Origin: an uncultured Pelagibacteraceae bacterium
GTDB lineage: Bacteria > Pseudomonadota > Alphaproteobacteria > Pelagibacterales > Pelagibacteraceae
Reading direction: 5' to 3'
Length of the DNA: 64,000 bases
NCBI GenBank assembly: GCA_902634455.1
Contig: CACPKQ010000005.1
Span: forward strand, 302 to 64,301
Part shown: positions 4,778 to 24,949 of the stretch, piece by piece
How the letters are laid out: every line of letters starts with the position of its first letter
Numbering within the stretch: position 1 is the stretch's first letter
Position numbers and translations under genes: made by a program
The notes under the pieces: model-generated
The model's database searches: none
The model's input: the letters and a program-made list of their open reading frames with translations, nothing else
What the model was told of the DNA's origin: nothing

Positions 4778-4792
4778 AGAAACTATTAAATA

Positions 4793-5578: not shown

Positions 5579-5593
5579 ATATTTATATGTCAA
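5565..5593 (-). promoter_or_regulatory. Sigma70 promoter of a leaderless zur transcript
   Basis: Minus strand reads TTGACA (5593-5588), 17 bp, TATAAC (5570-5565). Predicted TSS is about at ATG 5559. Confidence 0.7.
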
Positions 5594-5599
5594 GTTTTT

Positions 5600-6031: not shown

Positions 6032-6188
6032 ATATATGGATATACATTTAAAATTTTATAAATCTATTAGAATCACCGATCAAAAAAAAAAAAAATCAAC
6101 TTTAGTCATAGATTAAATCATTACAAAATATTAAATGGGTCTTAGAACTATGATTCTAAATAAACAAAAAAAATTTATATAAGAAAAT

Positions 6189-7154
6189 ATGGAACTCTCA
6201 TTAATATATACCATAGTAGGATTTGGACTAGCAGGTTGGTCTGTTATTGGAAATGACTCTATTCAAACTTTAGGTACATTTATTGCCTCTAAACAAAAAT
6301 GGTTTAAATGGTATACACTTGCTGCTTCCGCATCATTTGTAATGATCTTAGCTCTTGCTTGGGGGTGGTATGCTTATGATGGTGATATTTCTTATGGGAG
6401 ATTAACGAGAATACCTTACCAAGAAATTCAATGGTATCATGCTGTTGCTCCAGGAATACTTTTGTTATTAACAAGAGTTGGTATTCCAGTTTCTACAACC
6501 TTCTTAGTGTTGTCTGCTTTTGCATCAACAGTTGTTTTAGAAAAAATGTTAATGAAAAGTGTTGTTGGTTACGGTTTGGCTGCTGTAGTTGCTTATATTT
6601 CTTGGATAACAATATCAAAATTTATTAATGAAAAGTTTGATGAAGTTGATGATAAATGGATTGGATTTTGGCGTAACTCTGTCTGGATTACCTCTGGTTG
6701 GTTATGGTGGGTTTGGTTATCACATGATGTTGCAAATATAGCAGTATATCTACCACGACAATTGAGCCCTACTCTCCTTATTACAGTAATGGCATACTTT
6801 ACAATTCTACTATTTTATATTTTTTATATTCATGGTGGACCTATTCAAAAAGTTGTTTTAGATAAAACTGGAACCAGATATGCAAGATCAGCCACAATTA
6901 TTAATGTAATCTATGCTGCGGTATTGTTTTACTTTAAAGAATTAAATGACCTTCCGATGTCAACCACTTGGGTATTTGTTGGATTACTATGTGGCCGAGA
7001 ATTAGCAATTTCGACTATGAATAAAGATTATAAATTTAAATATGTTTTCCCATTAATTGGAAAAGATTTTATTAAAATGATTTTCGGATTAAGCGTATCA
7101 GTCGGAATAGTGCTTGCTATTCACTATATAATAATTCCATATGGATTTTTTTAA
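6189..7154 (+). CDS. PiT-like (phosphate/sulfate) permease
   Basis: Polytopic; two internal repeats GNDSIQ...PVSTT and HDVAN...PMSTT resemble the PiT GxND/HD(V)AN and PxSTT signatures. Confidence 0.7.
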   Translation: MELSLIYTIVGFGLAGWSVIGNDSIQTLGTFIASKQKWFKWYTLAASASFVMILALAWGWYAYDGDISYGRLTRIPYQEIQWYHAVAPGILLLLTRVGIPVSTTFLVLSAFASTVVLEKMLMKSVVGYGLAAVVAYISWITISKFINEKFDEVDDKWIGFWRNSVWITSGWLWWVWLSHDVANIAVYLPRQLSPTLLITVMAYFTILLFYIFYIHGGPIQKVVLDKTGTRYARSATIINVIYAAVLFYFKELNDLPMSTTWVFVGLLCGRELAISTMNKDYKFKYVFPLIGKDFIKMIFGLSVSVGIVLAIHYIIIPYGFF

Positions 7155-8128
7155 TCAAGCAAAGTACCTAAGTGAAGAGATTTGTCATTAGCTTTTTCAT
7201 CTGACCAATTTGTTCTCCATATTTCAGAAGACCAATGCCCACAATTTACTGTTGGTCGTGAAAAACCTTCTAGTGGTTCTATTAATGGTTTAATTGTTAC
7301 ATCGTATTTTGGTACAGCAAAATATGGAAAAGAATAACGGTCTGTTCGACTTTTATTTATTACTCTATGTGGAGTAGACATTAATCTGCCTCCACTCCAT
7401 AATTCTAGCATATCACCAATATTTGCCACAAAAGTATTTTCACTTTCTTGTGGTGAAATCCATTTTCCATCCAATGTCTGAACCTCAAGTGCATTTGAGG
7501 AATCTGCTGCTATAATTGTTAAAGCATCAGTATCTTTATGAGGATGGAAACCATAAGCTTCATCATTAATTTTTTGTACCGGATAATGAAGTAAAGTCAT
7601 ATTAGTTAATGAAGGATAACTAAATTGATCAATTAATTCATTTTTTTTAAATCCTAGAGATTCTTCTAAAGCTCTTAAAAGAAGTGATGCTAATTTATCC
7701 ATTTCACTCCAATATTTTAAAATATTTGTTTTTGATTCAGGGACTTTTGACGGCCAAATGTTCGGGCCATGTAGTGAACATTTATAACATATAGGATCAT
7801 CAGCCGAAACTTCTGTATGTAATTTATAACCTTCATAGTGATCAGCTTTATAATCGGTGCCATTAGGAGTAAAAAAATCAAGAGGAATATAACCTCGATA
7901 ATTGTTTCGTGTTATCATTTCCTTTTTTTTTGTTAAATCATCAACATCAAAAATTTTTTTTACTGTGGAACGCATATTATTAACAATATCTGGATTTATT
8001 TCTGTAGCGGTTAAACTTACAAATCCAATTGATGAAAATGCATCATAAAGATCTTTAACAGTTTTATTTCTGACATCTTTATTTGTACTATTTAAAAGAC
8101 TTGCATCTATTAGAGGAATTTTATCCAC
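7151..8128 (-). CDS. 2-oxoglutarate/Fe(II) dioxygenase, IPNS-like
   Basis: IPLID N-terminus, RGY, HxD (HKD)...H (HRV) iron triad, RxS (RYS). Confidence 0.9.
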   Translation of the reverse strand: MDKIPLIDASLLNSTNKDVRNKTVKDLYDAFSSIGFVSLTATEINPDIVNNMRSTVKKIFDVDDLTKKKEMITRNNYRGYIPLDFFTPNGTDYKADHYEGYKLHTEVSADDPICYKCSLHGPNIWPSKVPESKTNILKYWSEMDKLASLLLRALEESLGFKKNELIDQFSYPSLTNMTLLHYPVQKINDEAYGFHPHKDTDALTIIAADSSNALEVQTLDGKWISPQESENTFVANIGDMLELWSGGRLMSTPHRVINKSRTDRYSFPYFAVPKYDVTIKPLIEPLEGFSRPTVNCGHWSSEIWRTNWSDEKANDKSLHLGTLLD

Positions 8129-8151
8129 AGTAAATAATTACCTTTAAAATT

Positions 8152-9516
8152 TTAATTAATTCTTACGTTTTGTTTTTTTAATTCTTTTTGTACGTCACTT
8201 AAATTAACATCTTTAAGATTTTTTTTGTTTTTTACAGATATAGCAGCAGCTATACCACCACCTTGACCGGTTACAACACAACAGGCCATATTTCTATTTG
8301 ATGCATGAGCTATTTTATCACCACCAATTGATCTACCTACTACAAGTAAATTAGAAATATTTTTTGGCATAAGAGATCTATATGGAATTTGCATATATCT
8401 ACCAGTTGTTGGTAAAATTAAAACTCCATATCCATCAATAAATTCTGGAAATATACCAATTGAATCCTCAAATCTTCCTTCGTTTCTCACATCCGACTCT
8501 TTCATATTATAATGTGCATCAATTTTTCGAGTATCTCTAATTCCAATTGTCATACCAAAATTTCTTAAACGAGCATTTGAACATCCTGGTGCAAACTTAC
8601 GTAAAGCTTTAATTGCTTGCATTGCTTCTTTACGCCCTTTCATTTCGAAGCGAGTTAAACTGTCTGGATCTGTTCCATCGCATCCTGCAAGATGGACTAA
8701 ATTCATATAAGTTAATTCTCCCGTATCATGCATTGCTCCCCATGTACCTGAGATAGTGTTTAAATCAGATTTTATAATTCCAGCTTGTATAGCTTTTTGA
8801 AATGGTGCTTTTAAAAATGGAGAAAACATTTTGTCTTCCTTGCCACTTGTTTCTACCTCCCATTCTCCTGATGCCCAATCACTATAAGTTTGTGGGTTGT
8901 CTTTAACTTCTTGCATAAATTTCTTTTTATCTACACCAGATAAATGAAACATCACGCTTGCAGCTATCATTTTTTCAACAGCTGTTTTATTAATTGGTGC
9001 CCCAGAGCGATACGCAACATCAGCATCCCCTGTTGCATCAATGATAACTTTTCCCATTATTGCTTCTCTACCAGCTTTGGATTCAACAATGATACCCTTT
9101 ATGGTACTTCCCTCTATTATAGGTGAAACAAAAAAACGATGTAACATTGGTGTTACACCAGAATCTTCAACTAAAGTATCTGCAACTAATTTAAATCTTT
9201 CACTATCAAGCTCGTAACTTGTTGATTGGCTTTCTGGTACAGCAGCATCCATTGATTTAGCTCGTTCTTCAAATTCAAAAGCAATTCCACCAGCTTCGAT
9301 TGTTTTTTCATGTCTATACCAGGCAAAACCTTCAACTCCTACTGCTGTAATATTACCGCCAAAACATCCAAATCTTTCAACAAGAACAACTTTTACGCCT
9401 GTTCTAGCAGCTGCTAATGCGGCTGCTAATCCACCTGGACCAGATCCAACAACTAAAACATCAGTTTCAGTAATTATTTCAATTTTTCTTGAAGGCTCCT
9501 CTATAAATTTTTTCAT
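8152..9516 (-). CDS. FAD-dependent oxidoreductase (FAD_oxidored family)
   Basis: DVLVVGSGPGG dinucleotide fold, IDATGDADVA, GIRDTR, QIPYRSLMP, NLLVVGRSI. Confidence 0.85.
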   Translation of the reverse strand: MKKFIEEPSRKIEIITETDVLVVGSGPGGLAAALAAARTGVKVVLVERFGCFGGNITAVGVEGFAWYRHEKTIEAGGIAFEFEERAKSMDAAVPESQSTSYELDSERFKLVADTLVEDSGVTPMLHRFFVSPIIEGSTIKGIIVESKAGREAIMGKVIIDATGDADVAYRSGAPINKTAVEKMIAASVMFHLSGVDKKKFMQEVKDNPQTYSDWASGEWEVETSGKEDKMFSPFLKAPFQKAIQAGIIKSDLNTISGTWGAMHDTGELTYMNLVHLAGCDGTDPDSLTRFEMKGRKEAMQAIKALRKFAPGCSNARLRNFGMTIGIRDTRKIDAHYNMKESDVRNEGRFEDSIGIFPEFIDGYGVLILPTTGRYMQIPYRSLMPKNISNLLVVGRSIGGDKIAHASNRNMACCVVTGQGGGIAAAISVKNKKNLKDVNLSDVQKELKKQNVRIN

Positions 9517-9521
9517 GAACT

Positions 9522-10514
9522 TTATTTACAATTAACGCAGCATTGATCTACCCAATGATTAGGTGTTACTTCAATTAAACCCATTTCTATATTTCCTTCT
9601 TTACAGTCATGTGTGGGATTAGGACAACGCGTTCTAAAAACACATCCTGAAGGGGGATTCATAGCGCTTGGAATTTCACCAGTAAGTTCAATTGCTTTAG
9701 ATTGTTTTTCTGGATCTATGGAAGGAATAGATGACAATAAAGCCTTTGTATAAGAGTGTTTAGGATTTTTAAACAATTCTTTTGAAGATGCTATCTCAAC
9801 TATATGTCCAAGATACATTACAGCAACCACATCACAAACGTGAGCCACTACACTTAAGTCGTGACTTATAAAAAGATAAGTTAAGTTCAATTCTTTTCTC
9901 AATGACTTTAATAAATTTAGTATATCTGCTTGAATAGACACATCTAACGCCGCAACACTTTCATCTGCTACAATAAATTTAGGGCTGCTCACCAGAGCTC
10001 GTGCGATAGATATTCTTTGACGTTGACCACCAGAAAAAGCGTGTGGAAATCTTCTTAAATGTTCAAGGTTTAATCTGCATTTTGAAGCTATTTCTCTTAC
10101 CCGTTCATCAGTTTCTTCTTTAGATTTAGTAATTTTCATTACTTCCAAAGGTTCAGCAATAATGTCTCTAACGGTCATTCGCGGACTTAAAGCAGCATAA
10201 GGATCTTGAAAAATTAATTGTGCTTTTTTTCTATATTCTTTTAATTCTTGCTTAGAAATTTTTGTTAAATCAAAGTCTTTATTATCATCGTGAAATATAA
10301 CATTTCCAGAACTAATTTTATTTGCGCCGAGTATTGCTCTTCCAAGTGTTGTTTTGCCAGAACCAGATTCTCCTACTAAACCAAAAAAAGATCCCTTTTT
10401 TATTTTAATATTTATATTTTGAACTGCATGAATTTTTTGTTTTTTTGCTAGAAAATTTTCTTGATAGTCAAATTCAACAGATAAATTGTTTACAGAAATT
10501 AGATCATTATTCAT
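9522..10514 (-). CDS. ABC ATP-binding protein, OppF/DppF type
   Basis: GESGSGKT, FSGGQRQR, DE, Cys-rich oligo_HPY C-terminus. Confidence 0.92.
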   Translation of the reverse strand: MNNDLISVNNLSVEFDYQENFLAKKQKIHAVQNINIKIKKGSFFGLVGESGSGKTTLGRAILGANKISSGNVIFHDDNKDFDLTKISKQELKEYRKKAQLIFQDPYAALSPRMTVRDIIAEPLEVMKITKSKEETDERVREIASKCRLNLEHLRRFPHAFSGGQRQRISIARALVSSPKFIVADESVAALDVSIQADILNLLKSLRKELNLTYLFISHDLSVVAHVCDVVAVMYLGHIVEIASSKELFKNPKHSYTKALLSSIPSIDPEKQSKAIELTGEIPSAMNPPSGCVFRTRCPNPTHDCKEGNIEMGLIEVTPNHWVDQCCVNCK

Positions 10515-10520
10515 AATAAA

Positions 10521-11501
10521 TTACCCACAATTCACACAACATTTATCTACCCAGTGTCCCGGTTTTACTTCAATTAATCCCATTGGTGTTTTACCTTCTT
10601 TACATTCATGAGTAGGATTTGGACATCTTGTACGAAAAACACAATTTGAAGGTCTTTCCAACGGACTAGGGATATTTCCAGGAATAGGTTTTAATGGTGC
10701 ATCAAGATTATTAACATCTGGAAGAGCAGCAATTAATCCTTTAGTATATGGGTGTTTAGGGTTTTTTAAAATTTCATTAACTGGTCCCTTTTCAACTATG
10801 CACCCTAAATACATAACAGCAATTTGATCAGCAGTTTGGGCAATGACAGCTAAATCATGGGTAATAAAAATTACGCCCATTTTATATTCTTTAATAATGT
10901 CTTTCATTAGCTTCAAAACTTGTGCTTGAATAGTAACATCTAAGGCAGTTGTTGGTTCATCTGCTAATAATAATTTTGGCATGGTTGATAAAGCCATTGC
11001 AATCATGGCTCTCTGTCTCATTCCTCCCGATAATTCAAAAGCATATTGATTAAATCTTTTTTCTGTATCAGTTATTCCAACCCTTGTTAACATGTCTAAA
11101 GAAATAGATTTTGCTTCTTCCTTTTTAATATTTTTATGTAACAACAATTGCTCGACCATCTGATCACCTATTTTAATAGCAGGCGCAAAACTGGCCATTG
11201 GCTCCTGAAATATCATCGAAACTTTACCACCTCGAATTTTTTTTAAATCTTCCTTAGATGTAAATTTTATTACATTTTCACCATCTATAATTATCTCTGC
11301 ATCTTCGTTATAAATTGTATTACCTGGATTAAGTTGCATTATTGCTTTTGCAGTAACTGATTTTCCAGATCCAGACTCTCCAACAATTCCAAGGACCTCT
11401 CCTTGATTTACTGACAATGAAACATTTTCAACTGCTGTAATTCTACCTTCATCAGTATCAAATTTAACATCTAGATTTTTTATTTTTAATAATTCTTCCA
11501 T
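10521..11501 (-). CDS. ABC ATP-binding protein, OppD/DppD type
   Basis: GESGSGKS, LSGGMRQR, DEPTTALD, HPYT, Cys-rich tail. Confidence 0.92.
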   Translation of the reverse strand: MEELLKIKNLDVKFDTDEGRITAVENVSLSVNQGEVLGIVGESGSGKSVTAKAIMQLNPGNTIYNEDAEIIIDGENVIKFTSKEDLKKIRGGKVSMIFQEPMASFAPAIKIGDQMVEQLLLHKNIKKEEAKSISLDMLTRVGITDTEKRFNQYAFELSGGMRQRAMIAMALSTMPKLLLADEPTTALDVTIQAQVLKLMKDIIKEYKMGVIFITHDLAVIAQTADQIAVMYLGCIVEKGPVNEILKNPKHPYTKGLIAALPDVNNLDAPLKPIPGNIPSPLERPSNCVFRTRCPNPTHECKEGKTPMGLIEVKPGHWVDKCCVNCG

Positions 11502-11504
11502 ATT

Positions 11505-12695
11505 TTATTTATTTGTAATTTTATGAGGATCTGCTGCATCTCTTAGTCCGTCTCCAACAAAGACAAAAGATAATATTAGTACAACTAAAAATATTACAGG
11601 AATAAAGTACCATTGATAATTTAGAAGAACATCAGCAGCTGTTGCATTTTGTAATAATACACCTAATGAGTTAACTGGCTCTCTTAATCCCAAACCGATA
11701 AAACTAAGAGCTGTTTCTGCTAAAAGCATGTAAGGAAAGCTTATAACCAAATCAACTATTATGTAGCTTGTAAAGCTAGGTAAAAGATGTCGTCCAATAA
11801 TATGTGATGATGAAGCTCCACAAAGTTGAGCTGCAAGTACATATTCTTGACTTCTTTCAGCCAATAAATGTGTTCGTACTCTTCTAGCAAGTGTTGGCCA
11901 ATTAATTAACCCTAATAGACATGAGATAAAGAAAAACCTTAACTCTGAACTCCATTCGAGTGGAGCAAAAGCTGCCAAACACATAAACAAAGGTATGGGG
12001 GGTACTGTTCTAACCGCATCGGTAAACATTTGTAAAACACCATCAATCCATCCACCATAATAACCCGAGATACCTCCAATAATTAAAGAAAGGATAAATG
12101 ATATAAAAACACCTAAAGTTCCAACAGCTAAAGAAATGTATATGGCAGCTAAAGTTCTTCCAAATATATCTTTACCGGCCTTGTCGGTACCAAATAAATG
12201 AATACCACCTTTATCCATGCCAAACAAATGCCTATTCATTTTAAAACCAGGCACTTTAAAATCTAAGGCTTCACCTGGTAAATTTATACTGAAATCAAAG
12301 ACTCTGTACTCCCAGCTCTTAACAAAAAAATGCACATACCGCCTTTTCTCTCTATCTTCTTTGTAAACCCATCTAAAATTTGTTTCAGCACTTCTAAATT
12401 TTGTTTGTGTATAAAGAAAAGGTCTAAACGAAAAACCATTTTCATCCCAAAATTTAGGAATTTGTGGTGCGCCATTTTCATATTGTTTATCACGTCCTGC
12501 TATAGTTGGATTGTATGGAGATAAGAAATCTGAAAATAAACCTAAAAAAATTAAAAATATTAAAACAGAGCCAGCTATTTTTGCTGATTTATTTTTAAAA
12601 AAACGTCCTCTAACTAACTGTGCTTGAGTAGCAGTAAAGTAAGCTTCTTTTTTCTTTGAAGCAATTTCTATATTTTTTGTTGTACTAGCTTCCAC
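11505..12695 (-). CDS. ABC permease, OppC/DppC type
   Basis: HLFGTDKAGKDIF, EYVLAAQLCGA (EAA loop), ETALSFIGLG, GDGLRDAADP. Confidence 0.92.
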   Translation of the reverse strand: MEASTTKNIEIASKKKEAYFTATQAQLVRGRFFKNKSAKIAGSVLIFLIFLGLFSDFLSPYNPTIAGRDKQYENGAPQIPKFWDENGFSFRPFLYTQTKFRSAETNFRWVYKEDREKRRYVHFFVKSWEYRVFDFSINLPGEALDFKVPGFKMNRHLFGMDKGGIHLFGTDKAGKDIFGRTLAAIYISLAVGTLGVFISFILSLIIGGISGYYGGWIDGVLQMFTDAVRTVPPIPLFMCLAAFAPLEWSSELRFFFISCLLGLINWPTLARRVRTHLLAERSQEYVLAAQLCGASSSHIIGRHLLPSFTSYIIVDLVISFPYMLLAETALSFIGLGLREPVNSLGVLLQNATAADVLLNYQWYFIPVIFLVVLILSFVFVGDGLRDAADPHKITNK

Positions 12696-13698
12696 CCATT
12701 ACTCCCTTACGAACCCTTGGATCCATTATTGCTAAAATCACATCTGTAACAAAATTTACAAAAACAATTGTAGCTGTTAGCAAAAATATAATAGCACCAG
12801 CTAATTGTTGATCATTTGAACGTGCCAATGCTTCGATTAATAAAGCTCCAGCCTCGGTTAATATTAAAATAAGTGCAACTATAGGAAGTGCACTAAAAAT
12901 TCTATTTAAATCAAATCCGATAGAATTAATAACGGGTCCTAGTGAATGCTTGGCAGGATAACGCCACAACAAAGACATTCCAGAAATACCTCTGGCTCTT
13001 GCTGCCATTACATACAGTTTATCATTTTCATCGAGCATTAAAGCTCTTACTGTTTGAAGAGCAAAAGCGGTTGCATTCCAACCTAAAACAAATATCGGCA
13101 ACCATGCTCTACTTAAAAAATCTTTAACTCTATCTGCAGACCAAGGAACGTTTTCATATTCTTCAGAAAATAAACCTGTCATTGTGTCTCCGTAAAAATA
13201 AGTCATAAAAAGCATAATACAGAGAGCGACCAAAAAATTAGGTAAGGCAATACCTAAATAACTTATAAATTTTAATGACTCGTCAACAACCTTATATTTG
13301 GTCGTGGCCGAAATTATTCCGACCGGTATAGCTATTAAATATGATAAAAGTAATGCGGTTATTGATATAATTAAAGATAAGGAAAACCGTCCACTTAAAA
13401 GTTCATTAATATTCATTCTTAAAATACAACTGTTGCCAAATTCTCCTTTAAAAGCAATGTCAGTTACCCATTTACCGTATCTATATAAAAAAGGTTTATC
13501 TAGACCCAATCGAACTTTTTCAGCTTCAATGTCTTCGTAAGTAATTTGGGAACCTTGTGTGTTTTTAAAAGCTAAATACCTTTCAGCGCAAGTACCGGGA
13601 ACAAGCTCCATTAATGAAAAAACTATAAAACAAACAATCAATAATGTGATAATTGCTAAGAAAAATCTTGTTAATGTAAATTGTATAAAATTAATCAT
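12685..13698 (-). CDS. ABC permease, OppB/DppB type
   Basis: LGLDKP, LPNF, YVMAARARG, C-terminal DPRVR. Confidence 0.92.
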   Translation of the reverse strand: MINFIQFTLTRFFLAIITLLIVCFIVFSLMELVPGTCAERYLAFKNTQGSQITYEDIEAEKVRLGLDKPFLYRYGKWVTDIAFKGEFGNSCILRMNINELLSGRFSLSLIISITALLLSYLIAIPVGIISATTKYKVVDESLKFISYLGIALPNFLVALCIMLFMTYFYGDTMTGLFSEEYENVPWSADRVKDFLSRAWLPIFVLGWNATAFALQTVRALMLDENDKLYVMAARARGISGMSLLWRYPAKHSLGPVINSIGFDLNRIFSALPIVALILILTEAGALLIEALARSNDQQLAGAIIFLLTATIVFVNFVTDVILAIMDPRVRKGVMGGS

Positions 13699-13749
13699 AC
13701 TTATCCATTATTAATGTAACTTAAATTATAGATTAACTAAAAAAAAAAT

Positions 13750-13777
13750 AAAAGCGGCAATTTTCATTGCCGCTTTT
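13750..13777 (-). terminator. Rho-independent terminator/attenuator between the SBP and permease genes
   Basis: AAAAGCGGCAA-ttttca-TTGCCGCTTTT hairpin followed by a T-run on the minus strand. Confidence 0.8.
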
Positions 13778-13809
13778 TAAATTATATATTTTTACTAAAC
13801 TTAACCTAA

Positions 13810-15873: not shown

Positions 15874-15996
15874 TATTGTCTCCTTATTGTTATTCTTTAA
15901 AACGATATTTAATTTCAATTTTGAGCAAAAGTAAACGTGAGTTAAAATTAATTTCAATCTATAATTGCAATGGTTGACTTAAAAGTATAATTTTTA

Positions 15997-17400: not shown

Positions 17401-17483
17401 TAGATTTTTTAATAGATTATACTTTTTCAAACATATTACTATGCAAACATTAATTTTTGATTTAATTTTATTATTATTTAAAG

Positions 17484-19019
17484 ATGAAAAAATCAGTTTT
17501 ATTTATTTGTGCTGACCAATGGAGGTGGGATTGTTTTGGTTTTATGGGACATAAACATGCTCATACACCCACTATTGACAAATTAGCTTCTAGAAGTACC
17601 GCTTTTACAAAACATTTCACAAATATAATTCCTTGTGGACCCTCAAGGGCAACGATGTTAACTGGTCTATACCCTTTTATTCATCGTTCAGTTGTTAATG
17701 GTGCTCCATTAGATGAACGTTTTACAAATATTGCTTTAGAAGTAAAAAAACTTGGATACGACCCTACTCTTTATGGGTACACAGATACTTCGTATGATCC
17801 TCGTAAATTAGATAAAAATGATCCTCGTCTTTTTACTTATGAATCTCCTATGCCAGGTTTTAATCCTGTTTGCCATTTGCCTAGTGGAAATCCTGAACCG
17901 TGGGCTTCTTATTTAGAAGAAAAAGGTATTAAGGTAAAAAAACCAACTGATTTATATATATGTCCAGAAGCAAATTATGAAGAAGGATTTGCATATAAAG
18001 CATGGAAAATTCCTACAGAACTTTCTGATACTTCGTTCTTAGCAGATAGAGCTGCTGAAGATTTAAGAAATTTAAAAAAACCTTTTTTTATGCATGTATC
18101 TTTTTTAAAGCCTCACCCACCTTATTGTGTATCTGACCCTTGGCATAGTTTGATTGATCCTACAAAATTGGAAAATGACATTTTAGATGAAAATTGTGAT
18201 TATAGAAATAAACTTCATCCTTTAGCAGAAAAAATTGTTGAATGTTTTGAAGTCAAAGGCAATAAAACTCCAGAAATAAATTACAAAAATCTAACAAAAA
18301 AAGATATAGCAAGAATACAAGCAGTTTATTTAGGTATGTGTGCTGAAGTAGATTTTAACATTAAAAAAATATTAAAAGCCCTTGATGATAACGGGCAATC
18401 AGATAATACAATGATAATTTTTACTAGCGATCACGGAGAGATGCTTGGTCAACACAAAATGTTTGGAAAAAAAGGTTGGTGGGATCAATCTTACCGTATA
18501 CCTTTAATTGTTTACACACCAAATTGTAAACCTCAAATGTTGAATGAAATGACAGAATCAGTTGACCTTTTGCCAACTATTATTGATTGGTTAGGAGGTG
18601 AAATACCTATAGATTGTAACGGAAGATCTTTAATCTCAAATATTGAAAGTGGAAAACCAAATTTACCAAATAGAGACTACGTAATTTTTGAATGGGATTT
18701 TAGAGATCTATACCTAAATAAAAATTCAAAAAAATTAACTTTAGCTCCTGAGGAGTGTAATTTATCAGTAATAAGAACTGATGAATGGAAATATGTTCAT
18801 TTTCCAGCTTTTGAACCTTTGTTATATAATATTAAAAATGACCCAAATGAAAAAGTAAATTTAGCTACAAATTCAAAATATGATAAAATTAAAAGTGAAA
18901 TGCTAAGCAAACTTTTAAGTCATCGTATTAGACATTCTGAACGTCAAATGACAAACACAAAATTAACTTCAGAAGGACCAAAGATATTAAATGGTCCATC
19001 GATAAGACAAATAGTATAA
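17484..19019 (+). CDS. pehA: Phosphonate monoester hydrolase / phosphodiesterase (alkaline phosphatase superfamily, formylglycine-type)
   Basis: DQWR, PCGPSRATMLTGLY, HRSVVNGAPLD, GYDPTLYGYT, DPR...NDPR, PHPP, SDHGEMLG, WKYVHF. These match the PMH subfamily pattern better than arylsulfatases. No signal peptide. Confidence 0.8.
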   Translation: MKKSVLFICADQWRWDCFGFMGHKHAHTPTIDKLASRSTAFTKHFTNIIPCGPSRATMLTGLYPFIHRSVVNGAPLDERFTNIALEVKKLGYDPTLYGYTDTSYDPRKLDKNDPRLFTYESPMPGFNPVCHLPSGNPEPWASYLEEKGIKVKKPTDLYICPEANYEEGFAYKAWKIPTELSDTSFLADRAAEDLRNLKKPFFMHVSFLKPHPPYCVSDPWHSLIDPTKLENDILDENCDYRNKLHPLAEKIVECFEVKGNKTPEINYKNLTKKDIARIQAVYLGMCAEVDFNIKKILKALDDNGQSDNTMIIFTSDHGEMLGQHKMFGKKGWWDQSYRIPLIVYTPNCKPQMLNEMTESVDLLPTIIDWLGGEIPIDCNGRSLISNIESGKPNLPNRDYVIFEWDFRDLYLNKNSKKLTLAPEECNLSVIRTDEWKYVHFPAFEPLLYNIKNDPNEKVNLATNSKYDKIKSEMLSKLLSHRIRHSERQMTNTKLTSEGPKILNGPSIRQIV

Positions 19020-19024
19020 AATAT

Positions 19025-20074
19025 ATGCTTACTACAGTTATTGGTGCATATCCTAAACCTAAATACCTTAAACTTCCTGATTGGTTTAATGCTGATGGTG
19101 GTACTGATACACAATATCCAACGAAAGATTATCATGATGCAATTAAAGAAATGGGAATTGAAGCTGAAAATATATTTCAAAAAGCAACTGAAGAAGTAAT
19201 TAGAGACCAAATAGAATGTGGAATTGATATTATAACTGATGGCGAGGTACGTAGAGAAAATTATATCCACTATCATTGCCGCCATTTGGATGGAATCGAT
19301 TTTAATAAGTTGACCAAAAAAGTAGCAAGAACAGGAAATTATGAATGTTGGTTGCCTACTATAACAGGAACTGTAAAAGCTAAAGAAGCTTTTTTGGTGA
19401 GGGAATGGCAGTTAGCACAAAAAATGTCTTCTAAACCCGTAAAAATAACTATACCAGGTCCAATGACTATAACTGATACAATATCTAATGAATTTTATAA
19501 TTCTCCAAAAAAAATGGGAGAAGATTTAGCTGAAGCTATAAAAGTTGAAATAAATAGACTGGCTGAAGCAGGTTGCAAATATATTCAAGTTGATGAACCT
19601 TTGTTTGCTAGAAAACCAAAAGAAGCTATTGAATATGGAATTAAAAATCTTGAAAAATGTTTTGAAGGAATAGTGAATAAAAAAATAGATAAAATTACAC
19701 ACATATGTTGCGGTTACCCTGATAAATTAGATGCTGTTAATTACCCTAAAGCTCCACTTAATTCGTATCACGAAATTGCTAAAATGCTAGACAATTCAAT
19801 TGTAGACTCAATTTCAATAGAAGATGCTCATAGATACAACGATTTAAATTTGTTAAGTAAATATAAAAATAAAAAAATAATTTTCGGTGTTTTAAAAATT
19901 GCTAGTAGTAAAACTGATTCTGAAGAAGATATTTATAATAGAGTTAAAGAAGCACTTAACCATATAGATAAAGAAAGGCTTATACTAGCTCCTGATTGTG
20001 GACTTGGTCACTTACCAAGAGAACTTTCTAAAAAAAAATTAAAAATAATGTCGGAAGTGGCAAATAAATTTTAA
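19025..20074 (+). CDS. Single-domain ('core') MetE-like Zn-dependent thiol alkyltransferase
   Basis: TTVIGAYPKP, DGEVRRENY, PGPMT, IQVDEP, HxC (HICC), E, PDCGL zinc ligands; no N-terminal MetE barrel. Confidence 0.8.
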   Translation: MLTTVIGAYPKPKYLKLPDWFNADGGTDTQYPTKDYHDAIKEMGIEAENIFQKATEEVIRDQIECGIDIITDGEVRRENYIHYHCRHLDGIDFNKLTKKVARTGNYECWLPTITGTVKAKEAFLVREWQLAQKMSSKPVKITIPGPMTITDTISNEFYNSPKKMGEDLAEAIKVEINRLAEAGCKYIQVDEPLFARKPKEAIEYGIKNLEKCFEGIVNKKIDKITHICCGYPDKLDAVNYPKAPLNSYHEIAKMLDNSIVDSISIEDAHRYNDLNLLSKYKNKKIIFGVLKIASSKTDSEEDIYNRVKEALNHIDKERLILAPDCGLGHLPRELSKKKLKIMSEVANKF

Positions 20075-20151
20075 ATTATTTTGTCACGGTACTTATTTAT
20101 TTAATGGTTTTTATTGCAGATGTTTATTAACTGATATATAGAATGTGTTTT

Positions 20152-21393
20152 ATGTCAAAAATTGATAAAATTTCTGTTAATGGAAAATCATACAAATGGC
20201 CTACAAAACCAGCTGTTGTTATTTGTTTAGATGGAAGCGAGCCAGGACCAAAAGGTTATATTGATACTGCAATTAGAATGGATTGTATGCCTTTCATGAA
20301 ATCAATGTTAAGTAAATCAACTTATGAAATTGGTAAATGTGCAATGCCAAGCTTCACAAATGTGAATAATATGTCAATTGTTACTGGAACAACTCCAGAT
20401 GTGCATGGTATATGTGGTAACTTCTTTTTTAATCCAGATGATGGAAAAGAAACATTGATGAATGATGACTCTTTTTTACGTGTTTCAACAATTTTTGAAG
20501 CTTTTGAAAATGCCGGTGCGAAAATAGCAATAATTACAGCAAAAGAAAAACTAAGAAAATTATTAGGAAAAAATCTTAAAAAAGCTATTTGTTTCTCATC
20601 TGAAAAAGCAGACACAGCAAACTTAAAAGAAAATAGAATAGAAAATGTTTTAGATTTAGTAAAAAAACCTCTACCAGAAGTTTATAGCTCAGATTTGTCA
20701 GAATTTATTTTTGCTGCTGCAGTAGAAATTATTAAAAAAGAGAAGATTGATTTAATTTATCTATCAACAACTGATTATATTCAACACAAATCTGCTCCTG
20801 GAGGCAAATTAGCTAATAATTTTTATCATATGCTTGATGGTTACCTGTCTAAATTTTATGACTTAGGTTGTGAAATATCTTTAACCGCAGATCATGGAAT
20901 GAAGGGCAAGACGAACGAAGATGGTTCTTTAAATTTAATCTATATACAAGACGAACTAGATAAAAAATTTGGTAAAGATGAATGTAATGTTGTTTGTACT
21001 ATCACAGACCCTTATGTTGTTCATCATGGGGCTTTGGGTGGTTTTGTGACAATATACCTAAAAAATAAAGCTAAAATTGATGATGTTATAAACTATATCA
21101 AAACAATAAAAGGTGTTGAGCTGGTTCTGAATAAAAAAGATAGTGTTAAAAAGTTGAATCAACCAGAGGATAGAATTGGTGATATTGTTGTTACATCGAA
21201 TGAAAATTTTGCAATTGGTAAAAAAAAGAGTGATCATGATTTAAGTCAATTAAAAGAACCATTAAGAACTCATGGTGGCCTTGGAGAAACAGATATACCT
21301 ATTTTTATATCAAAAAAAATCGATGCTAGCTACAAATCAAAAGGTGTCTTAAAGAATTACGATATATTTGATTTAGCCTTAAATTATGGATAA
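20152..21393 (+). CDS. phnA: Phosphonoacetate hydrolase
   Basis: ICLDG, MPSFTNVNNMSIVTG, HGICGNFF, YLSTTDYIQHK, TADHGM, DPYVVHHGALG, LRTHGG. Confidence 0.93.
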   Translation: MSKIDKISVNGKSYKWPTKPAVVICLDGSEPGPKGYIDTAIRMDCMPFMKSMLSKSTYEIGKCAMPSFTNVNNMSIVTGTTPDVHGICGNFFFNPDDGKETLMNDDSFLRVSTIFEAFENAGAKIAIITAKEKLRKLLGKNLKKAICFSSEKADTANLKENRIENVLDLVKKPLPEVYSSDLSEFIFAAAVEIIKKEKIDLIYLSTTDYIQHKSAPGGKLANNFYHMLDGYLSKFYDLGCEISLTADHGMKGKTNEDGSLNLIYIQDELDKKFGKDECNVVCTITDPYVVHHGALGGFVTIYLKNKAKIDDVINYIKTIKGVELVLNKKDSVKKLNQPEDRIGDIVVTSNENFAIGKKKSDHDLSQLKEPLRTHGGLGETDIPIFISKKIDASYKSKGVLKNYDIFDLALNYG

Positions 21394-22828
21394 AAAAATT
21401 TTTAAGGTTAAAGGGACCTATGTAAATGGTCAGTGGCTTAACTCAAAAGATAGATACGATATTTATAACCCATCTAATGGTGAAAAATTATCCGACGTAC
21501 CTATATCAGATAAAAAAGAACTTGAATTAGCAGTAGACTCTGCAAAAAAAGCTCAGCTAATCTGGTCAAAAACTTCTTTAATTGAAAGAGCTAACGCTTT
21601 AGAAAAGTTAGCAAAAAAAATACTAGAAAAAGAGGAAGAGTTTGCTTTAATTGACACTTACGATTCAGGTAATGCTTTAACTGGGATGAGAAAAGATGTT
21701 AAGGAAACAGTAAATAACATAAGATATTTTTGTGGATTGGTAAGAGAAGTTAAAGGCGAAACTTTTTCCATGGAAAAAAACCACTTAAATTTTACACGTT
21801 ATCAACCTTATGGTGTCGTACTTAAAATCAATCCTTTTAATCACCCTTTTAGATTTTGCGTTGAAAAAATTGCTGCACCTTTATTAATGGGGAATTCTCT
21901 GATAATCAAAAATTCTGAACAAGCACCAATTTCCTCTTTGAGATTTTGTGAACTGTTAGAAAATATATTTCCAAAAGGTTTGATAAACGTTGTAACAGGA
22001 GGTCCAGATAACGGAAAATTTTTAGTTGAACATCCAGATATCAAAAGAATAGCTGTAATAGGATCTGTTAATACTGGAATAGCTGTTGCAAAATCTGCTG
22101 CCCCTCTTCTCAAAAATATATCTTTAGAGTTAGGTGGTAAAAATCCAATTATTGTTTTTGATGACGCTGATCCAGATTTTGCAGCAAGTTTAGCTATAAA
22201 AGGTATGAACCTAAGCAGACAAGGACAGTCATGTAGTTCTACTTCTCGTGTTCTTATAAATAAAAAAGTTAAAGAAAAATTCCTTAAATCACTTGTAGAA
22301 AAAGCAAAAAGTATTCCTGTTGGATTGCCGTGGATTGAGACAAATGAAATAGGTCCGATCGTATCGAAAAAACAATTTGAAGGAGTCATGAACTATATTA
22401 AATCTGGCATTGAACAAGGTGCAAAATTACTTTTAGGAGGAGATCAAAATAAATCAGATGATCTTAAAAACGGTTTTTTTATAAATCCTACTATTTTCTG
22501 TGATGTTAAACCTGATATGAAAATAGCAAAGGAAGAAATTTTTGGACCAGTTATATCCGTTATTGACTGGGATGATTATGATGAGATGGTAAAAATTGCT
22601 AATTCAACTAAGTATGGATTAACAACTATGATTGTAACTAACTCTTTATCTAATGCCATGAAAACTGCTGAAGATGTAGAGGTTGGATATGTTTGGGTAA
22701 ACACATCGGGCAGATATTCTGGTGCACAATATGGTGGTTGGAAACTTAGCGGTATTGGTGTTGAAGAATGCTTTGATGAAATGAAAGGTTACGCAAGACT
22801 TAAAAATATTAATATGAAATGGAATTAA
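21386..22828 (+). CDS. NAD-dependent aldehyde dehydrogenase; putative phosphonoacetaldehyde dehydrogenase (PhnY role)
   Basis: PFNHP, LELGGKNP, GQSC catalytic Cys, EEIFGPV; start overlaps phnA. Confidence 0.8.
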   Translation: MDKKIFKVKGTYVNGQWLNSKDRYDIYNPSNGEKLSDVPISDKKELELAVDSAKKAQLIWSKTSLIERANALEKLAKKILEKEEEFALIDTYDSGNALTGMRKDVKETVNNIRYFCGLVREVKGETFSMEKNHLNFTRYQPYGVVLKINPFNHPFRFCVEKIAAPLLMGNSLIIKNSEQAPISSLRFCELLENIFPKGLINVVTGGPDNGKFLVEHPDIKRIAVIGSVNTGIAVAKSAAPLLKNISLELGGKNPIIVFDDADPDFAASLAIKGMNLSRQGQSCSSTSRVLINKKVKEKFLKSLVEKAKSIPVGLPWIETNEIGPIVSKKQFEGVMNYIKSGIEQGAKLLLGGDQNKSDDLKNGFFINPTIFCDVKPDMKIAKEEIFGPVISVIDWDDYDEMVKIANSTKYGLTTMIVTNSLSNAMKTAEDVEVGYVWVNTSGRYSGAQYGGWKLSGIGVEECFDEMKGYARLKNINMKWN

Positions 22829-22979
22829 ATTTTTAATTATATAATCCCTAAAAATTATTTTTGGTAAAAAAATGCTTAAAATAAAAAAAAAATTAAAATT
22901 ATGTTTGAAGGAAAAATTAAATCTTAAATAAAATTTTTTTCTTGAATTTCTGAAATAAAACTGTATCAAAACTCTAATT

Positions 22980-23180
22980 ATGGCAAAAAGAAATTTTAAA
23001 TCAAAAAAAATTAAGAAATCTTATAAAGAAGAAAATTACGAAGAATTATCACCAATTAGAAGACTTGAAAGAAAACTTGATAGAGTAAATCATATTATGG
23101 AACTAATTCGTACAATTGTTCCTATAATGTTGTTGGCATTAAATTGTATAATTTTAGCAAAAATATTTAATCTGATTTAA
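22980..23180 (+). CDS. Small protein with basic N-terminus, short coiled coil and one C-terminal TM helix
   Basis: 66-aa ORF filling the ALDH-phnW gap; hydrophobic tail IVPIMLLALNCIILAKIFNLI. Confidence 0.6.
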   Translation: MAKRNFKSKKIKKSYKEENYEELSPIRRLERKLDRVNHIMELIRTIVPIMLLALNCIILAKIFNLI

Positions 23181-23201
23181 TATTAGTCCTATATAAAAAA
23201 A

Positions 23202-24302
23202 ATGGATAAAAAACTGCTTACACCAGGTCCCCTTACAACTTCTGATTCAACAAAAAAAGCTATGCTTCATGACTGGGGTTCACGTGATGTTAAGTTCATA
23301 GATTTAAACAAAAAAATTCGTGAAACTCTAGTTGACCTAATTAATGGTCAAAATGTTTTTGAATGCGTTCCAATGCAAGGAAGTGGAACATTTTCTGTTG
23401 AAGCAATGATAGGGTCTTTAACAAACAAAAAATCAAAAATATTAATTTTAATTAATGGTGCTTATGGTCAACGGATGAAAAAAATATGTTCTTATATGTC
23501 TAGAAATTTTATTACATATGATGTTGCCGAACATGAAATTCATGATATTAACAAAATTCAAAATCTAATTAATGAAAATAAAGATCTGACACACATATTT
23601 TCCGTTTACTGTGAAACAACGTCAGGAATTTTAAACCCAATACAATCGATTTCGGAATTAGCCAAAAAAAATAATATATCCTTTTTTATTGATGCAATGA
23701 GTGCTTTTGGAGCTTTGCCCTTAGATGTAAAAAAAACATATTTTGATGCTGTTGCCGCTTCTTCAAATAAATGTTTAGAAGGAGTTCCTGGAGTTGGATT
23801 TATATTAGTAAGAAAATCTGTTCTTCAGACTTCTAAAAATAATTCTCATTCTCTTAGCTTAGATTTGTATGATCAATGGGAATCTATGGAAAAAAATGCA
23901 CAATGGAGATTTACACCTCCAACTCATGTTTTGGCTGCATTCAATCAAGCTTTAACGGAACACCAAAATGAAGGTGGAACAAAAGGTAGGTATCAACGTT
24001 ATAATAAAAATTGTAAAATAATTTGTGATGGTATGGCAAAAATAGGTTTTAAACAGCTTCTATCAAATGAATTACAAGCACCTATTATTATTACATTTTT
24101 ACAACCAAAAGTTCCAAATTTCGATTTCAAAAAGTTTTATAATTCATTAAGTGACAAAGGTTTCTTAATTTATCCTGGAAAACTTACTGTTGCTGATACT
24201 TTTAGAATTGGTTGTATAGGACATTTAAATGAAAAGGATATGAAAGACGCTATTATTGCTGTAGAAAATACATTAAAGGATCTTAACATAAAATTAAGTT
24301 AA
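23202..24302 (+). CDS. phnW: 2-aminoethylphosphonate:pyruvate transaminase
   Basis: LLTPGPLTTS, DWGSRD, QGSGT, CETTSG, DAMSAFG, SSNKCLEGVPG (PLP Lys), QWRFTPPTH, IYPGKLT. Confidence 0.95.
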   Translation: MDKKLLTPGPLTTSDSTKKAMLHDWGSRDVKFIDLNKKIRETLVDLINGQNVFECVPMQGSGTFSVEAMIGSLTNKKSKILILINGAYGQRMKKICSYMSRNFITYDVAEHEIHDINKIQNLINENKDLTHIFSVYCETTSGILNPIQSISELAKKNNISFFIDAMSAFGALPLDVKKTYFDAVAASSNKCLEGVPGVGFILVRKSVLQTSKNNSHSLSLDLYDQWESMEKNAQWRFTPPTHVLAAFNQALTEHQNEGGTKGRYQRYNKNCKIICDGMAKIGFKQLLSNELQAPIIITFLQPKVPNFDFKKFYNSLSDKGFLIYPGKLTVADTFRIGCIGHLNEKDMKDAIIAVENTLKDLNIKLS

Positions 24303-24306
24303 AGAA

Positions 24307-24945
24307 ATGACGGCTACATTTGAAATTCCTTTAGTTAGAGCAACAAATGATAATCTAAAAGGATATGGTAATTTAGTTAATAATTTTGATGATTGTCAAA
24401 TCCAAATTACACAATGGCCGAAACAAGGTTGGCGTGAGATTGATCCTGGTACTGGTGATGAAGGTGGCATAACAGAAGGATCTTTTGAAGTTTGGTGGGA
24501 TAAAAATATTTTATATGGAAAAAATAATGCTGTACCTCATAAAAATATAAACAATTATGAAAAAGATGATGTATATCTTTTGGGTTATAGTTACCATCCT
24601 AGCGAAAAAAATACTAAACAGAATACTGAAGTAATTGAAGACATATATTTATGGCATGCAAATTATCACCCTGATGGAGGCCAGCTTTTTTTCCCTCAAG
24701 AAAAAAAACCATTTGTTTGTGCTTTAGCATTACCAGGTGATGACGTAAAACCAGAAAATTTCAAAGCATTTTATTTTGATGGATCAATGGGTTTATATAT
24801 TCACCCGTATGTATGGCACGATGCTGTATTTCCTATAAATAAAACAGCAACTTTTAGAGGCAAACAAGGAAAAGTGCATGCGCGTGTGAGTATTGATTTT
24901 TCTAAAGAATTTAATGGATATTTAAAATTTAAAACTAAAATTTAA
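24307..24945 (+). CDS. Ureidoglycolate lyase (AllA)-like cupin
   Basis: NYHPDGGQLFFP, ALALPGDD, GLYIHPYVWH metal-cupin pattern. Confidence 0.6.
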   Translation: MTATFEIPLVRATNDNLKGYGNLVNNFDDCQIQITQWPKQGWREIDPGTGDEGGITEGSFEVWWDKNILYGKNNAVPHKNINNYEKDDVYLLGYSYHPSEKNTKQNTEVIEDIYLWHANYHPDGGQLFFPQEKKPFVCALALPGDDVKPENFKAFYFDGSMGLYIHPYVWHDAVFPINKTATFRGKQGKVHARVSIDFSKEFNGYLKFKTKI

Positions 24946-24949
24946 ATAA

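Follow-up and report, generated by a model that had tools for sequence, protein, structure and literature searches.

A mosaic accessory island in a Pelagibacteraceae genome joins a family-5 importer and a PMH-family hydrolase to 2-aminoethylphosphonate catabolic genes, with phosphonate esters as candidate substrates

Import of a phosphorus ester followed by its cleavage inside the cell has been described for the agrocinopine (acc) system: a sugar phosphodiester is taken up by means of the family-5 substrate-binding protein (SBP) AccA and, once in the cell, is split by AccF (PMC4526662, PMC7356202). The conversion of 2-aminoethylphosphonate (AEP) to acetate and inorganic phosphate by PhnW, PhnY and PhnA is an established route (PMC13576164, PMC8316502), and a route for 2-hydroxyethylphosphonate was described recently (PMC13576164). 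In the ocean, phosphonates account for roughly one fifth to one quarter of the high-molecular-weight dissolved organic phosphorus and are for the most part ester-linked to glycans, lipids and proteins (PMC8931226, PMC8316502, PMC5649143). Characterised phosphonate monoester hydrolases (PMHs) cleave phosphonate monoesters as well as phosphodiesters, as stated in PMC5649143 with reference to Dotson (1996) and Jonas (2008), and the freeing of phosphonates from high-molecular-weight dissolved organic matter by PEH has only been postulated (Sosa et al., 2017). Here we analyse a 64,000-nucleotide stretch of DNA from an uncultured Pelagibacteraceae (SAR11) bacterium (contig CACPKQ010000005.1 of assembly GCA_902634455.1, positions 302 to 64,301; hereafter the window), in which the genes of a family-5 importer and a PMH-family hydrolase adjoin genes for AEP catabolism.

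The analysis was computational and combined an open reading frame (ORF) map and Pfam and NCBIfam scans of the window with gene-neighbourhood comparisons and searches for structurally solved relatives; loci and genomes used for comparison are cited by their L and G numbers. The source assembly comprises 1.09 Mb and is 81% complete, and relatives of the locus carry the label Pelagibacteraceae, which upholds the assignment to SAR11. All fifteen genes listed in the original prediction were recovered at their positions by ORF calling, Pfam and NCBIfam. They form two divergent arms in an AT-rich region (GC about 29-35%). The left arm, on the minus strand, is transcribed in the order MATE efflux protein, family-5 SBP, two permeases, two Opp-type ATPases, FAD oxidoreductase and 2-oxoglutarate (2OG) oxygenase, while the right arm, on the plus strand, encodes the PMH, a core MetE-like enzyme (core-MetE), PhnA, an aldehyde dehydrogenase (ALDH), a 66-residue protein, PhnW and a cupin. 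Three complete genomes of the same genus share both flanks, namely IlvD-ManC and the zur-side genes (window 1526-6031), with a different segment of 8-10.5 kb in between, so that window positions ~6032-24949 correspond to a replacement island. Within this flexible locus of a Pelagibacter genome, the accessory island is a mosaic that joins two units, the importer with its hydrolase (Unit 1) and the genes of AEP catabolism (Unit 2). Of 300 other Pelagibacterales genomes sampled, none yielded a PMH and five a PhnA (PhnA in 0/200 within the same genus); since both are rare and the whole block is a replacement, two rare units have landed together. The gene identities, the island status and the recurrent linkage of the transporter clade with PMH and phn genes are the observations on which the following rests.

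That the importer and a PMH without signal peptide work as one unit, as originally proposed, is well supported by their conserved pairing. A search for PMH relatives in one genome per species, taken with 10-kb flanks, gave 15 full-length and two partial close relatives; where flanks exist, these genes are divergent from the same ABC operon (SBP identity 40-97%). Importer and PMH are neighbours, either divergent or co-directional, in L001-L016. A class-wide sample of 400 alphaproteobacterial genomes contributed 13 further carriers of the SBP clade (36-78% identity), nine of which have a PehA-like gene in the same locus. Scanning metagenomes with an SBP alignment, we obtained 80 loci, with a PMH/PehA-like gene in 28, a core-MetE homologue in 13, phn genes in six, the aldose 1-epimerase gene (GalM) in five, and an ethanolamine-type gene set and an IMPase-like phosphatase in four each. 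When only the 15 well-flanked loci are considered (at least 3 kb upstream and at least 2.5 kb downstream), PMH is nearby in seven. The linkage is kept over SBP identities of 36-97% and GC contents of 0.29-0.71. Using tblastn against PLSDB plasmids we found two clear SBP orthologues, with 51% and 44% identity, the next matches being at about 31%. In Ruegeria conchae the orthologous transporter is followed by genes for DeoR, EamA, Fe-ADH, ALDH, a glutamine-synthetase-like (GS-like) enzyme, an N-formylglutamate-amidohydrolase-like (FGase-like) enzyme and a HisN/IMPase-like phosphatase, and a PehA-like gene (37% identity to the window PMH) is divergent from it. Judging from family names, the GS-like/Fe-ADH/ALDH/amidohydrolase set resembles gamma-glutamylation routes for amino alcohols; a candidate substrate of the HisN-like phosphatase is an amino-alcohol phosphate. 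Two-carbon amino head groups, or their phosphorus, are the common target suggested for all accessory genes that accompany the unit. From these neighbourhoods we consider it very probable that the importer works together with the PMH on phospho(no)esters as one functional unit.

Phosphonate-catabolic genes, either PhnW with PhnX or PhnW/PhnY/PhnA, adjoin the transporter clade in at least six different gene orders. The clearest case is the Rhodobacteraceae plasmid pSC52_2, on which one co-directional operon encodes the SBP (44% identity), two permeases, two ATPases, PhnW, PhnX and a PehA-like hydrolase and contains no other transporter; the gaps after the ATPase genes are at most 23 bp. Its PhnW scores 547 bits and its PhnX 332 bits (cut-off 220), and the hydrolase, which shares 32% identity with the window PMH, has the CGPSR motif and reaches 333 bits on the PehA model. 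In G607/L059, a carrier from the class-wide sample, the ABC operon is divergent from Na/Pi-PhoU, PehA-like, PhnW, PhnA, PhnY and Fe-ADH genes, with all phn members above their cut-offs. PhnY-PhnA-PhnW is divergent from PehA-SBP-ABC in L133; L131 shows ethanolamine-type genes, then the ABC genes and then PhnW-PhnA-PhnY, and L158/L160 the order PhnY-PhnW-ABC-IMPase-PMH. PhnX adjoins the ABC operon in L118, and PhnW-PhnA-PhnY together with core-MetE do so in L100. The phn genes found beside this transporter clade in the metagenome loci pass the curated cut-offs. By a rough estimate, a phn cluster would adjoin a given locus by chance at ~0.1-0.2% per genome, and the six of 80 loci observed are far above this level. 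The original prediction had staked the joining of the two arms on their co-occurrence elsewhere, and this was encountered in independent lineages, with differing sets and orders of genes, in pSC52_2, G607/L059, L100, L118, L131, L133 and L158/L160.

The hydrolase of the window (17484-19019, plus strand) is a formylglycine hydrolase of sulfatase fold from the PehA/PMH family. With 475.2 bits on NF045661, for which the cut-off is 900, it is no PehA equivalog and belongs to the PMH family in a wider sense. It retains the formylglycine motif as CGPSR (C-x-P-x-R), and among solved proteins it is closest to PMHs (4UPH, E 7.7e-109; 2VQR, 1.5e-105; 2W8S, 2.2e-102), the matches to arylsulfatases being far weaker (4UPL, 1.3e-53; 4UPI, 8.6e-51); these features place it in the PMH clade. 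The absence of a signal peptide, which had been predicted, agrees with the alignment to solved PMHs, which begins at residue 2; with no leader, the hydrolase is therefore predicted to be cytoplasmic. In the PMH tree the window enzyme falls in a marine low-GC clade (support 100/100). The enzymes of SC52 and G607, likewise linked to phn genes, group with their counterparts from R. conchae and R. pomeroyi in a second clade of equal support (100/100), so that at least two PMH lineages have acquired or kept the association with phn genes. Among SAR11 islands that are otherwise 85-97% identical, the PMH alleles are only 57-91% identical (window 17484-19019, L002:8626-10155, L086:3694-5211, L083:8462-9991), a divergence that suggests allele swapping or diversifying selection on the esterase.

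The SBP gene (13810-15873, minus strand; SBP_bac_5, PF00496, 181 bits) encodes a periplasmic protein of 687 residues. The gene is present as predicted, with its start corrected from that of the listed ORF (13810-15957) to Met29 (window 15873), from which the protein has a Sec signal peptide that ends in SFA, followed by ADC. It is the only family-5 SBP found in the genome. Among solved proteins its closest match is 5IPW, entered as a putative binder of oligopeptides, followed by the pectin-oligosaccharide binder SPH1118 (7VER), the alpha-galactoside binder 6EPY and the chitin-oligosaccharide binder 1ZTY, whereas the peptide binders DppA and OppA match at E 1e-9 or weaker, which sets it apart from the peptide-binding type. 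By this comparison the SBP is assigned to the oligosaccharide/sugar-derivative branch of family 5. A search of the SAR11 SBP survey PMC11485210 gave nothing on oligopeptide-, Opp- or family-5-type binding proteins, and the protein described here appears not to be covered by it. The other importer genes, all on the minus strand, encode an OppB-like permease (12685-13698; BPD_transp_1_N and BPD_transp_1), an OppC-like permease (11505-12695; OppC_N and BPD_transp_1), an OppD-like ATPase (10521-11501; ABC_tran and oligo_HPY) and an OppF-like ATPase (9522-10514; ABC_tran and oligo_HPY), the last being 85-95% identical in related loci. A family-5 SBP with Opp-type ABC components makes this importer acc-like.

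In the right arm, PhnA, a phosphonoacetate hydrolase (20143-21393, plus strand), scores 494.4 bits on TIGR02335 (cut-off 407.55) with a match covering residues 10-414 of 416, and PhnW, an AEP:pyruvate transaminase (23202-24302, plus strand), scores 521.9 bits on NF010006 (cut-off 296) and 471.2 on TIGR02326 (cut-off 400.8). Both belong to the corresponding equivalogs and, in these two members, the PhnW/ALDH/PhnA route that had been proposed holds; the ALDH, on the other hand, is no orthologue of PhnY. This enzyme (21386-22828, plus strand; PF00171, 486 bits) reaches 249 bits on TIGR03250, where the cut-off is 635.65 and the true PhnY proteins of L035, L059, L100 and L133 obtain 724-791 bits. 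Its best models are those of betaine-aldehyde dehydrogenase (BADH; 419 and 413 bits), and neither a canonical PhnY nor a PhnX was found in this genome at its 81% completeness. A PhnA-ALDH pair 83-88% identical to that of the window lies beside a Phn_Fe-ADH-like gene and PhnCDE in other SAR11 genomes. Because of the 8-bp overlap with phnA and the retention of this pair, the ALDH is a probable phosphonoacetaldehyde dehydrogenase that is PhnY-like in function and non-orthologous to PhnY. The SAR11 loci L033 (G021:C1:882000-901900) and L038 have PhnA without PMH, accompanied by a BADH-like ALDH, a Phn_Fe-ADH-like gene, EamA, LysR, PHO4, PhoU_div and PhnCDE. This PhnA-ALDH locus looks like the 2-hydroxyethylphosphonate route of PMC13576164, a likeness that supports the BADH-like ALDH as a working phosphonoacetaldehyde dehydrogenase.

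Two further genes accompany PhnW. Directly 5' of it in every SAR11 island variant is the gene for the 66-residue protein (22980-23180, plus strand), which has a basic N-terminus, one C-terminal transmembrane (TM) helix and no family match, and which is 89-94% identical in L002, L083, L084 and L085. On the other side is the ureidoglycolate-lyase-like (AllA-like) cupin (24307-24945, plus strand; PF04115, 37 bits; Ureidogly_lyase family in the Atlas), which has five invariant histidines. In SAR11 and in a second low-GC order the cupin gene is invariably the next one after PhnW, with copies 58-84% identical in L002, L084 and L035-L037 (for example L035:11169-11798 and L084:9448-10086), and it is absent from the phn loci of other lineages. 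An AlphaFold2 model computed from a six-sequence alignment was discarded as unusable (mean pLDDT 38). In L083/L084, which have neither PhnA nor ALDH, the cupin is the only candidate for the handling of phosphonoacetaldehyde.

Recombinant versions of the SAR11 island were found through close core-MetE relatives. L002 and L085 match the arrangement of the window. In L083/L084, FAD-ABC-MATE is divergent from PMH (91%)-coreMetE-tm-PhnW-cupin, followed by ManC-IlvD and lacking PhnA and ALDH, and L086 combines an SBP (76%) and a PMH (57%) of AEGEAN type with core-MetE (79%) and then a PhnA 97% identical to that of the window. The junctions of the right arm, as read from these variants, persist through recombination in SAR11. 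The second low-GC order, probably AEGEAN-169/HIMB59, carries the module in 72 of 187 genomes (single-cell, 1-1.6 Mb), here with an operon of the order SBP-permease-permease-ATPase-ATPase-EamA-aldose 1-epimerase (GalM) that is divergent from PMH-coreMetE; PhnA, a true PhnY, the cupin and PhnW make up a separate locus. In one genome of this order (L035:12970-16470) the PhnW-cupin locus is flanked by genes for an HD-domain protein, a DSP/PTP-type phosphatase and two homocysteine S-methyltransferases (PF02574).

Core-MetE (19025-20074, plus strand) begins 5 bp after the PMH gene and encodes a putative Zn alkyltransferase of 349 residues that consists of the catalytic barrel only (Meth_synt_2, PF01717, 141 bits). 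It is the only PF01717 gene found in the genome, and it lies outside the MetE family TIGR01371 (113 bits versus 930), with no N-terminal folate-binding domain. The best solved relative is MesD (3RPD, E 7.5e-44, ~35% identity), with which the homocysteine-binding motifs DGE and DEP align. An N-terminal motif reads IGAYP where MetE, as we assume, has a serine. According to the ORF map, no MesX (DUF1852)-like gene adjoins it. The clade (46-54% identity) occurs in 17 of 400 sampled alphaproteobacterial genomes and, in four of ten loci examined, lies beside GBBH/TauD-type dioxygenase genes with or without TmpA/TmpB-type HD-domain proteins (L081:9018-16685, L080:7451-10250, L074:8719-10325, L076:7863-12052). 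L081 additionally contains carnitine dehydrogenase with BKACE and GMC oxidase with ALDH, and three of these four loci carry another family-5 importer. The pathways represented beside the clade (TmpA/TmpB-like, carnitine, GMC oxidase plus ALDH) end in glycine betaine; such betaine-forming pathways were reportedly treated by Rajakovich and co-workers in 2019. Because its neighbours are betaine-forming pathways, a betaine-type methyl donor is the most economical guess, and core-MetE is probably a homocysteine methyltransferase that uses a non-folate donor of this type. The same associations hint at an unrecognised family of betaine-type homocysteine methyltransferases. Of the "accessory redox/methyl enzymes" that had been invoked, core-MetE thereby gains support from context, and the FAD enzyme and the 2OG oxygenase gain none.

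Taken together, Unit 1 would be an import-and-cleave system built like the acc operon. The large periplasmic SBP would pass a small anionic ester to the Opp-type ABC importer, and the leaderless PMH would cut the P-O-C ester in the cytoplasm, freeing the head-group phosph(on)ate; the MATE pump may export the unused part. The likeliest substrates would be esters of a 2-aminoethyl-phosph(on)ate-type head group with an alcohol, which the oligosaccharide-binding relatives of the SBP and the presence of GalM in the AEGEAN-like operon suggest to be a sugar or polyol. The head group could be AEP, N-methylated AEP or the isosteric phosphoethanolamine or phosphocholine, and the best-fitting family of substrates would be R-O-P(O2)-[O]-CH2CH2-N(H/CH3)3+. 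In Unit 2, PhnW would turn AEP into phosphonoacetaldehyde, the BADH-like ALDH would oxidise this to phosphonoacetate, and PhnA would split the latter into acetate and phosphate. Core-MetE would probably pass a methyl group from the quaternary-ammonium head group, or from a betaine derived from it, to homocysteine, yielding methionine, and in other carriers lineage-specific genes would handle the freed head group. Which ligand is bound, which way the PMH cleaves, where the methyl group comes from and what the FAD enzyme, 2OG oxygenase, cupin and 66-residue protein do are inferences in this scheme. Since PhnW is present in the SAR11 islands, with or without ALDH-PhnA, and a phosphomonoesterase is not, the phosphonate version is favoured there, and we lean slightly towards AEP-type phosphonate esters as the physiological substrate in this island. 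A broader proposal, that a family-5 importer for AEP-type esters, a PMH that frees the phosphonate and a core-MetE that takes N-methyl groups form a widespread marine system in which the cupin and the 66-residue protein carry out further steps on phosphonoacetaldehyde, is more speculative, and we put it forward tentatively and with some doubt.

Several observations weigh against a phosphonate ester as the imported compound and against the coupling of the two units. Most loci of the SBP clade lack phn genes, 8 of the 15 well-flanked ones have no PMH nearby, and around those without PMH (L060, L124, L136, L149) the neighbours have no theme in common (UxaA-type dehydratase, glutathione synthase, MscS and EAL/GGDEF genes). 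A distance of ~190 kb separates the module from the PhnA/PhnY/PhnW locus in the second low-GC order, in genomes with both on one contig (G352, G324, G394, G389), and the two arms are therefore not one operon everywhere; the co-occurrence of PMH and PhnA in genomes of that order (69/72 versus 64/115) was discarded as support because it is confounded by kinship and completeness. The genome, at 81% completeness, gave no match to FGE (PF03781) and a best anSME match of 27 bits, with a cut-off of 349; FGE was likewise not found in G696 (96% complete), G302, G303 and G352, genomes of the second order that carry the module. AepX/PhnS/PhnD-type SBPs are absent from the region, as had been claimed, but a PhnD-type SBP is encoded elsewhere in the genome (contig C6) and could bring in free phosphonate. 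SAR11 flexible loci may also gather phosphorus-scavenging genes without any coupling of substrates. Finally, several loci of the clade carry a HisN/IMPase-like phosphatase, a GS-like enzyme, Fe-ADH, ALDH and an FGase-like enzyme, and with such HisN/IMPase and ethanolamine-type neighbours in other lineages, phosphate diesters are at least as likely a class of substrate as phosphonate esters.

The main rival account is that the importer, PMH and core-MetE act only on choline- or ethanolamine-type phosphate diesters (glycerophosphocholine, glycerophosphoethanolamine or a sugar-phosphocholine, for example), with PhnW/ALDH/PhnA as an independent AEP route that shares the flexible locus and receives free AEP through another transporter. 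The HisN/IMPase-like phosphatase and ethanolamine-type genes that flank the unit in R. conchae, L138/L140, L120 and L066-L069 fit it, as do the ties of the core-MetE clade to betaine-forming pathways, the ~190 kb between the modules in the order where they are commonest, the PhnD-type SBP elsewhere in the genome, the status of the region as a replacement island and the fact that PMHs are good phosphodiesterases (PMC5649143). Nevertheless, phn genes lie in or beside the transporter operon in at least six gene orders, including the single operon of pSC52_2, a phosphomonoesterase that could deal with a phosphate head group is absent from the SAR11 islands, and the coreMetE-PhnA and coreMetE-tm-PhnW junctions persist across recombinant variants, and we regard this account as rather unlikely, though serious. 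A true sulfatase, with a unit that imports a sulfated (possibly O-methylated) sugar or oligosaccharide, desulfates it in the cytoplasm and uses the sugar, the phn link being coincidental, would agree with the sulfatase fold and formylglycine motif, the oligosaccharide branch of the SBP and the aldose 1-epimerase of the AEGEAN-like operon. The hydrolase is, however, about 50 orders of magnitude more strongly similar to solved PMHs than to related arylsulfatases, its neighbours elsewhere are phosphorus-related (Na/Pi-PhoU, PhnW/X/Y/A, the IMPase-like phosphatase), and no glycoside hydrolase or sulfate-handling gene recurs, which makes this explanation improbable. Even less credit is due to an ordinary oligopeptide, dipeptide or opine importer whose neighbouring enzymes are passengers of a hypervariable region: the Opp/Dpp-type components with oligo_HPY and OppC_N, and a weak best NCBIfam match to Opp4A, speak for it, but the nearest solved SBPs are sugar binders, the PMH linkage is conserved over a wide range of SBP identity and GC content, no peptidase recurs, and this is the sole family-5 SBP in a type of genome that normally lacks Opp systems. 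The sulfatase and peptide-importer readings were thus both ranked low, on the PMH similarity, the neighbouring genes and the sugar-binding relatives of the SBP.

The MATE gene (15997-17430, minus strand; PF01554, 166 bits) lies between the SBP and PMH genes, and since its relatives align from residue 19, the true start may be downstream. It is loosely kept with the module (L001, L002, L003, L006, L083-L085, L095-L097), and EamA takes its place in L005 and its relatives in the second low-GC order. At the other end of the left arm, the FAD-dependent oxidoreductase (8152-9516, minus strand; PF12831, 301 bits) starts 5 bp after the ATPase gene and has 94% identical copies 3' of the ATPase in L002 and L083; its match to solved structures is confined to the FAD-binding motif. 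The last gene (7151-8128, minus strand) encodes a 2OG-Fe(II) oxygenase of the IPNS or "iron-ascorbate oxidoreductase" type (PF03171, 69 bits; PF14226, 67 bits), whose best solved relative is 9OVH, an EFE-like enzyme (E 1.6e-39). Searches of solved structures gave no clue to the substrate of either enzyme. Convergent with the oxygenase gene, and overlapping its end, is a 321-residue ORF (6189-7154, plus strand) inside the island that has no Pfam or NCBIfam match. A scan of 7000-25200 for promoters and terminators gave fewer promoter-like sites than shuffled sequences, and inspection of the two short intergenic regions by eye showed nothing resembling a Pho-box repeat. The sole clear signal, and the only convincing terminator-like site of the cluster, is a strong hairpin (13750-13777, minus strand; 12-bp stem and T run) 3' of the SBP gene, between it and the permease genes, which is likely an attenuator giving surplus SBP transcript. 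Elsewhere in this genome, at contig C9:4657-15962, genes for a GMC oxidase, an HD-domain protein (37-47% to TmpB-like/PhnZ-like proteins), BKACE and a TauD/GBBH-like dioxygenase are clustered, a possible quaternary-amine or trimethyl-AEP cluster.

To our knowledge, the described AEP transporters and catabolic clusters all handle the free acid, and we know of no native substrate for PMHs. The literature search found no paper that names a natural substrate of the characterised PMHs, none on a PMH/PehA partner in AEP clusters or an importer for esterified phosphonates, and no mention of an ABC importer beside the pehA gene of Rhizobium leguminosarum; reviews and context surveys of AEP clusters mention no PMH or sulfatase-type partner. 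If the broader proposal is true, the imported ester would be shed from phosphonolipids, phosphonoglycans or dissolved organic matter, and a streamlined cell that lacks C-P lyase would obtain phosphorus, nitrogen, acetate and methyl groups from a single molecule. A dedicated importer with a cytoplasmic esterase would provide the step that has been missing on the way from esterified phosphonates into the PhnW pathways and would give a physiological context to the PMHs, which have long served as models of catalytic promiscuity. For bacteria that rely on reduced sulfur and methyl economy, the link to core-MetE suggests that methionine is made with a non-folate methyl donor. Strain SC52, Ruegeria conchae and R. 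leguminosarum are the culturable carriers identified by the comparison.

The component families and the logic of import followed by cleavage are already known, and the locus is best seen against its nearest described counterparts. RlPMH (pRL90232, 2VQR) and BcPMH/PehA (2W8S) share with the window PMH the fold, the formylglycine motif, a cytoplasmic location and ~37% identity (E ~1e-103), whereas the window enzyme lies below the PehA cut-off and in its own marine low-GC clade. On the R. leguminosarum plasmid NZ_CP071404.1 (13526-20744, L025), pehA has an SBP of family-5 size, two ATPases and two permeases directly 3' and an AraC regulator upstream; that SBP was rejected as an orthologue, being only a distant family-5 relative (pairwise E 1e-4), and counts as a parallel. 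The core methionine synthases MesA-D (Price et al., 2021, PMC7857596) resemble core-MetE in their single catalytic barrel and DGE/DEP motifs and, presumably, in their Zn site. The window protein is only ~35% identical to MesD and has no MesX partner and, unlike MesA-D, its clade keeps company with PMH/ABC units as well as with genes of TmpA/TmpB-like type and of carnitine and choline oxidation. Betaine-homocysteine methyltransferase (BHMT) belongs to another Pfam family (PF02574, as opposed to PF01717). With the hydrolytic AEP pathway, PhnW-PhnY-PhnA or PhnW-PhnX, the island shares a true PhnW and a true PhnA and thus the conversion of AEP to acetate and phosphate. It differs from known AEP clusters in having no known AEP transporter (AepXVW, AepP, AepSTU, PhnSTUV or PhnCDE) in the cluster and a BADH-like ALDH in place of a PhnY orthologue, and in carrying the PMH, core-MetE, cupin, 66-residue TM protein, FAD enzyme and 2OG oxygenase as extras.

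Among uptake systems, Ugp with GlpQ-UgpQ takes up and hydrolyses glycerophosphodiesters, and the likeness to it lies in ABC uptake of a phosphodiester, a cytoplasmic diesterase and the scavenging of phosphorus. Its SBP is of family 1 instead of family 5 and its esterase of the GDPD type instead of a PMH, and Ugp has no phosphonate or methyl link. The acc operon of Agrobacterium Ti plasmids (AccA-E, AccF, AccG, AccR) comes closer, with a family-5 (cluster C) SBP, an Opp-type importer and ester cleavage in the cytoplasm. Pfam and NCBIfam scans of the window gave no AccF-type (GDPD) esterase, AccG-type phosphatase or AccR-type regulator, which places the locus outside the acc type proper. An IMPase-like phosphatase and DeoR-type regulators, absent from the window, are present in several relatives of the unit, and we take them to be parallels of AccG and AccR. 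The window SBP is no AccA orthologue, its best solved relatives being 5IPW and SPH1118; the esterase is a formylglycine PMH of the alkaline-phosphatase superfamily where acc has the GDPD-type AccF, and the downstream genes are those of AEP catabolism and core-MetE.

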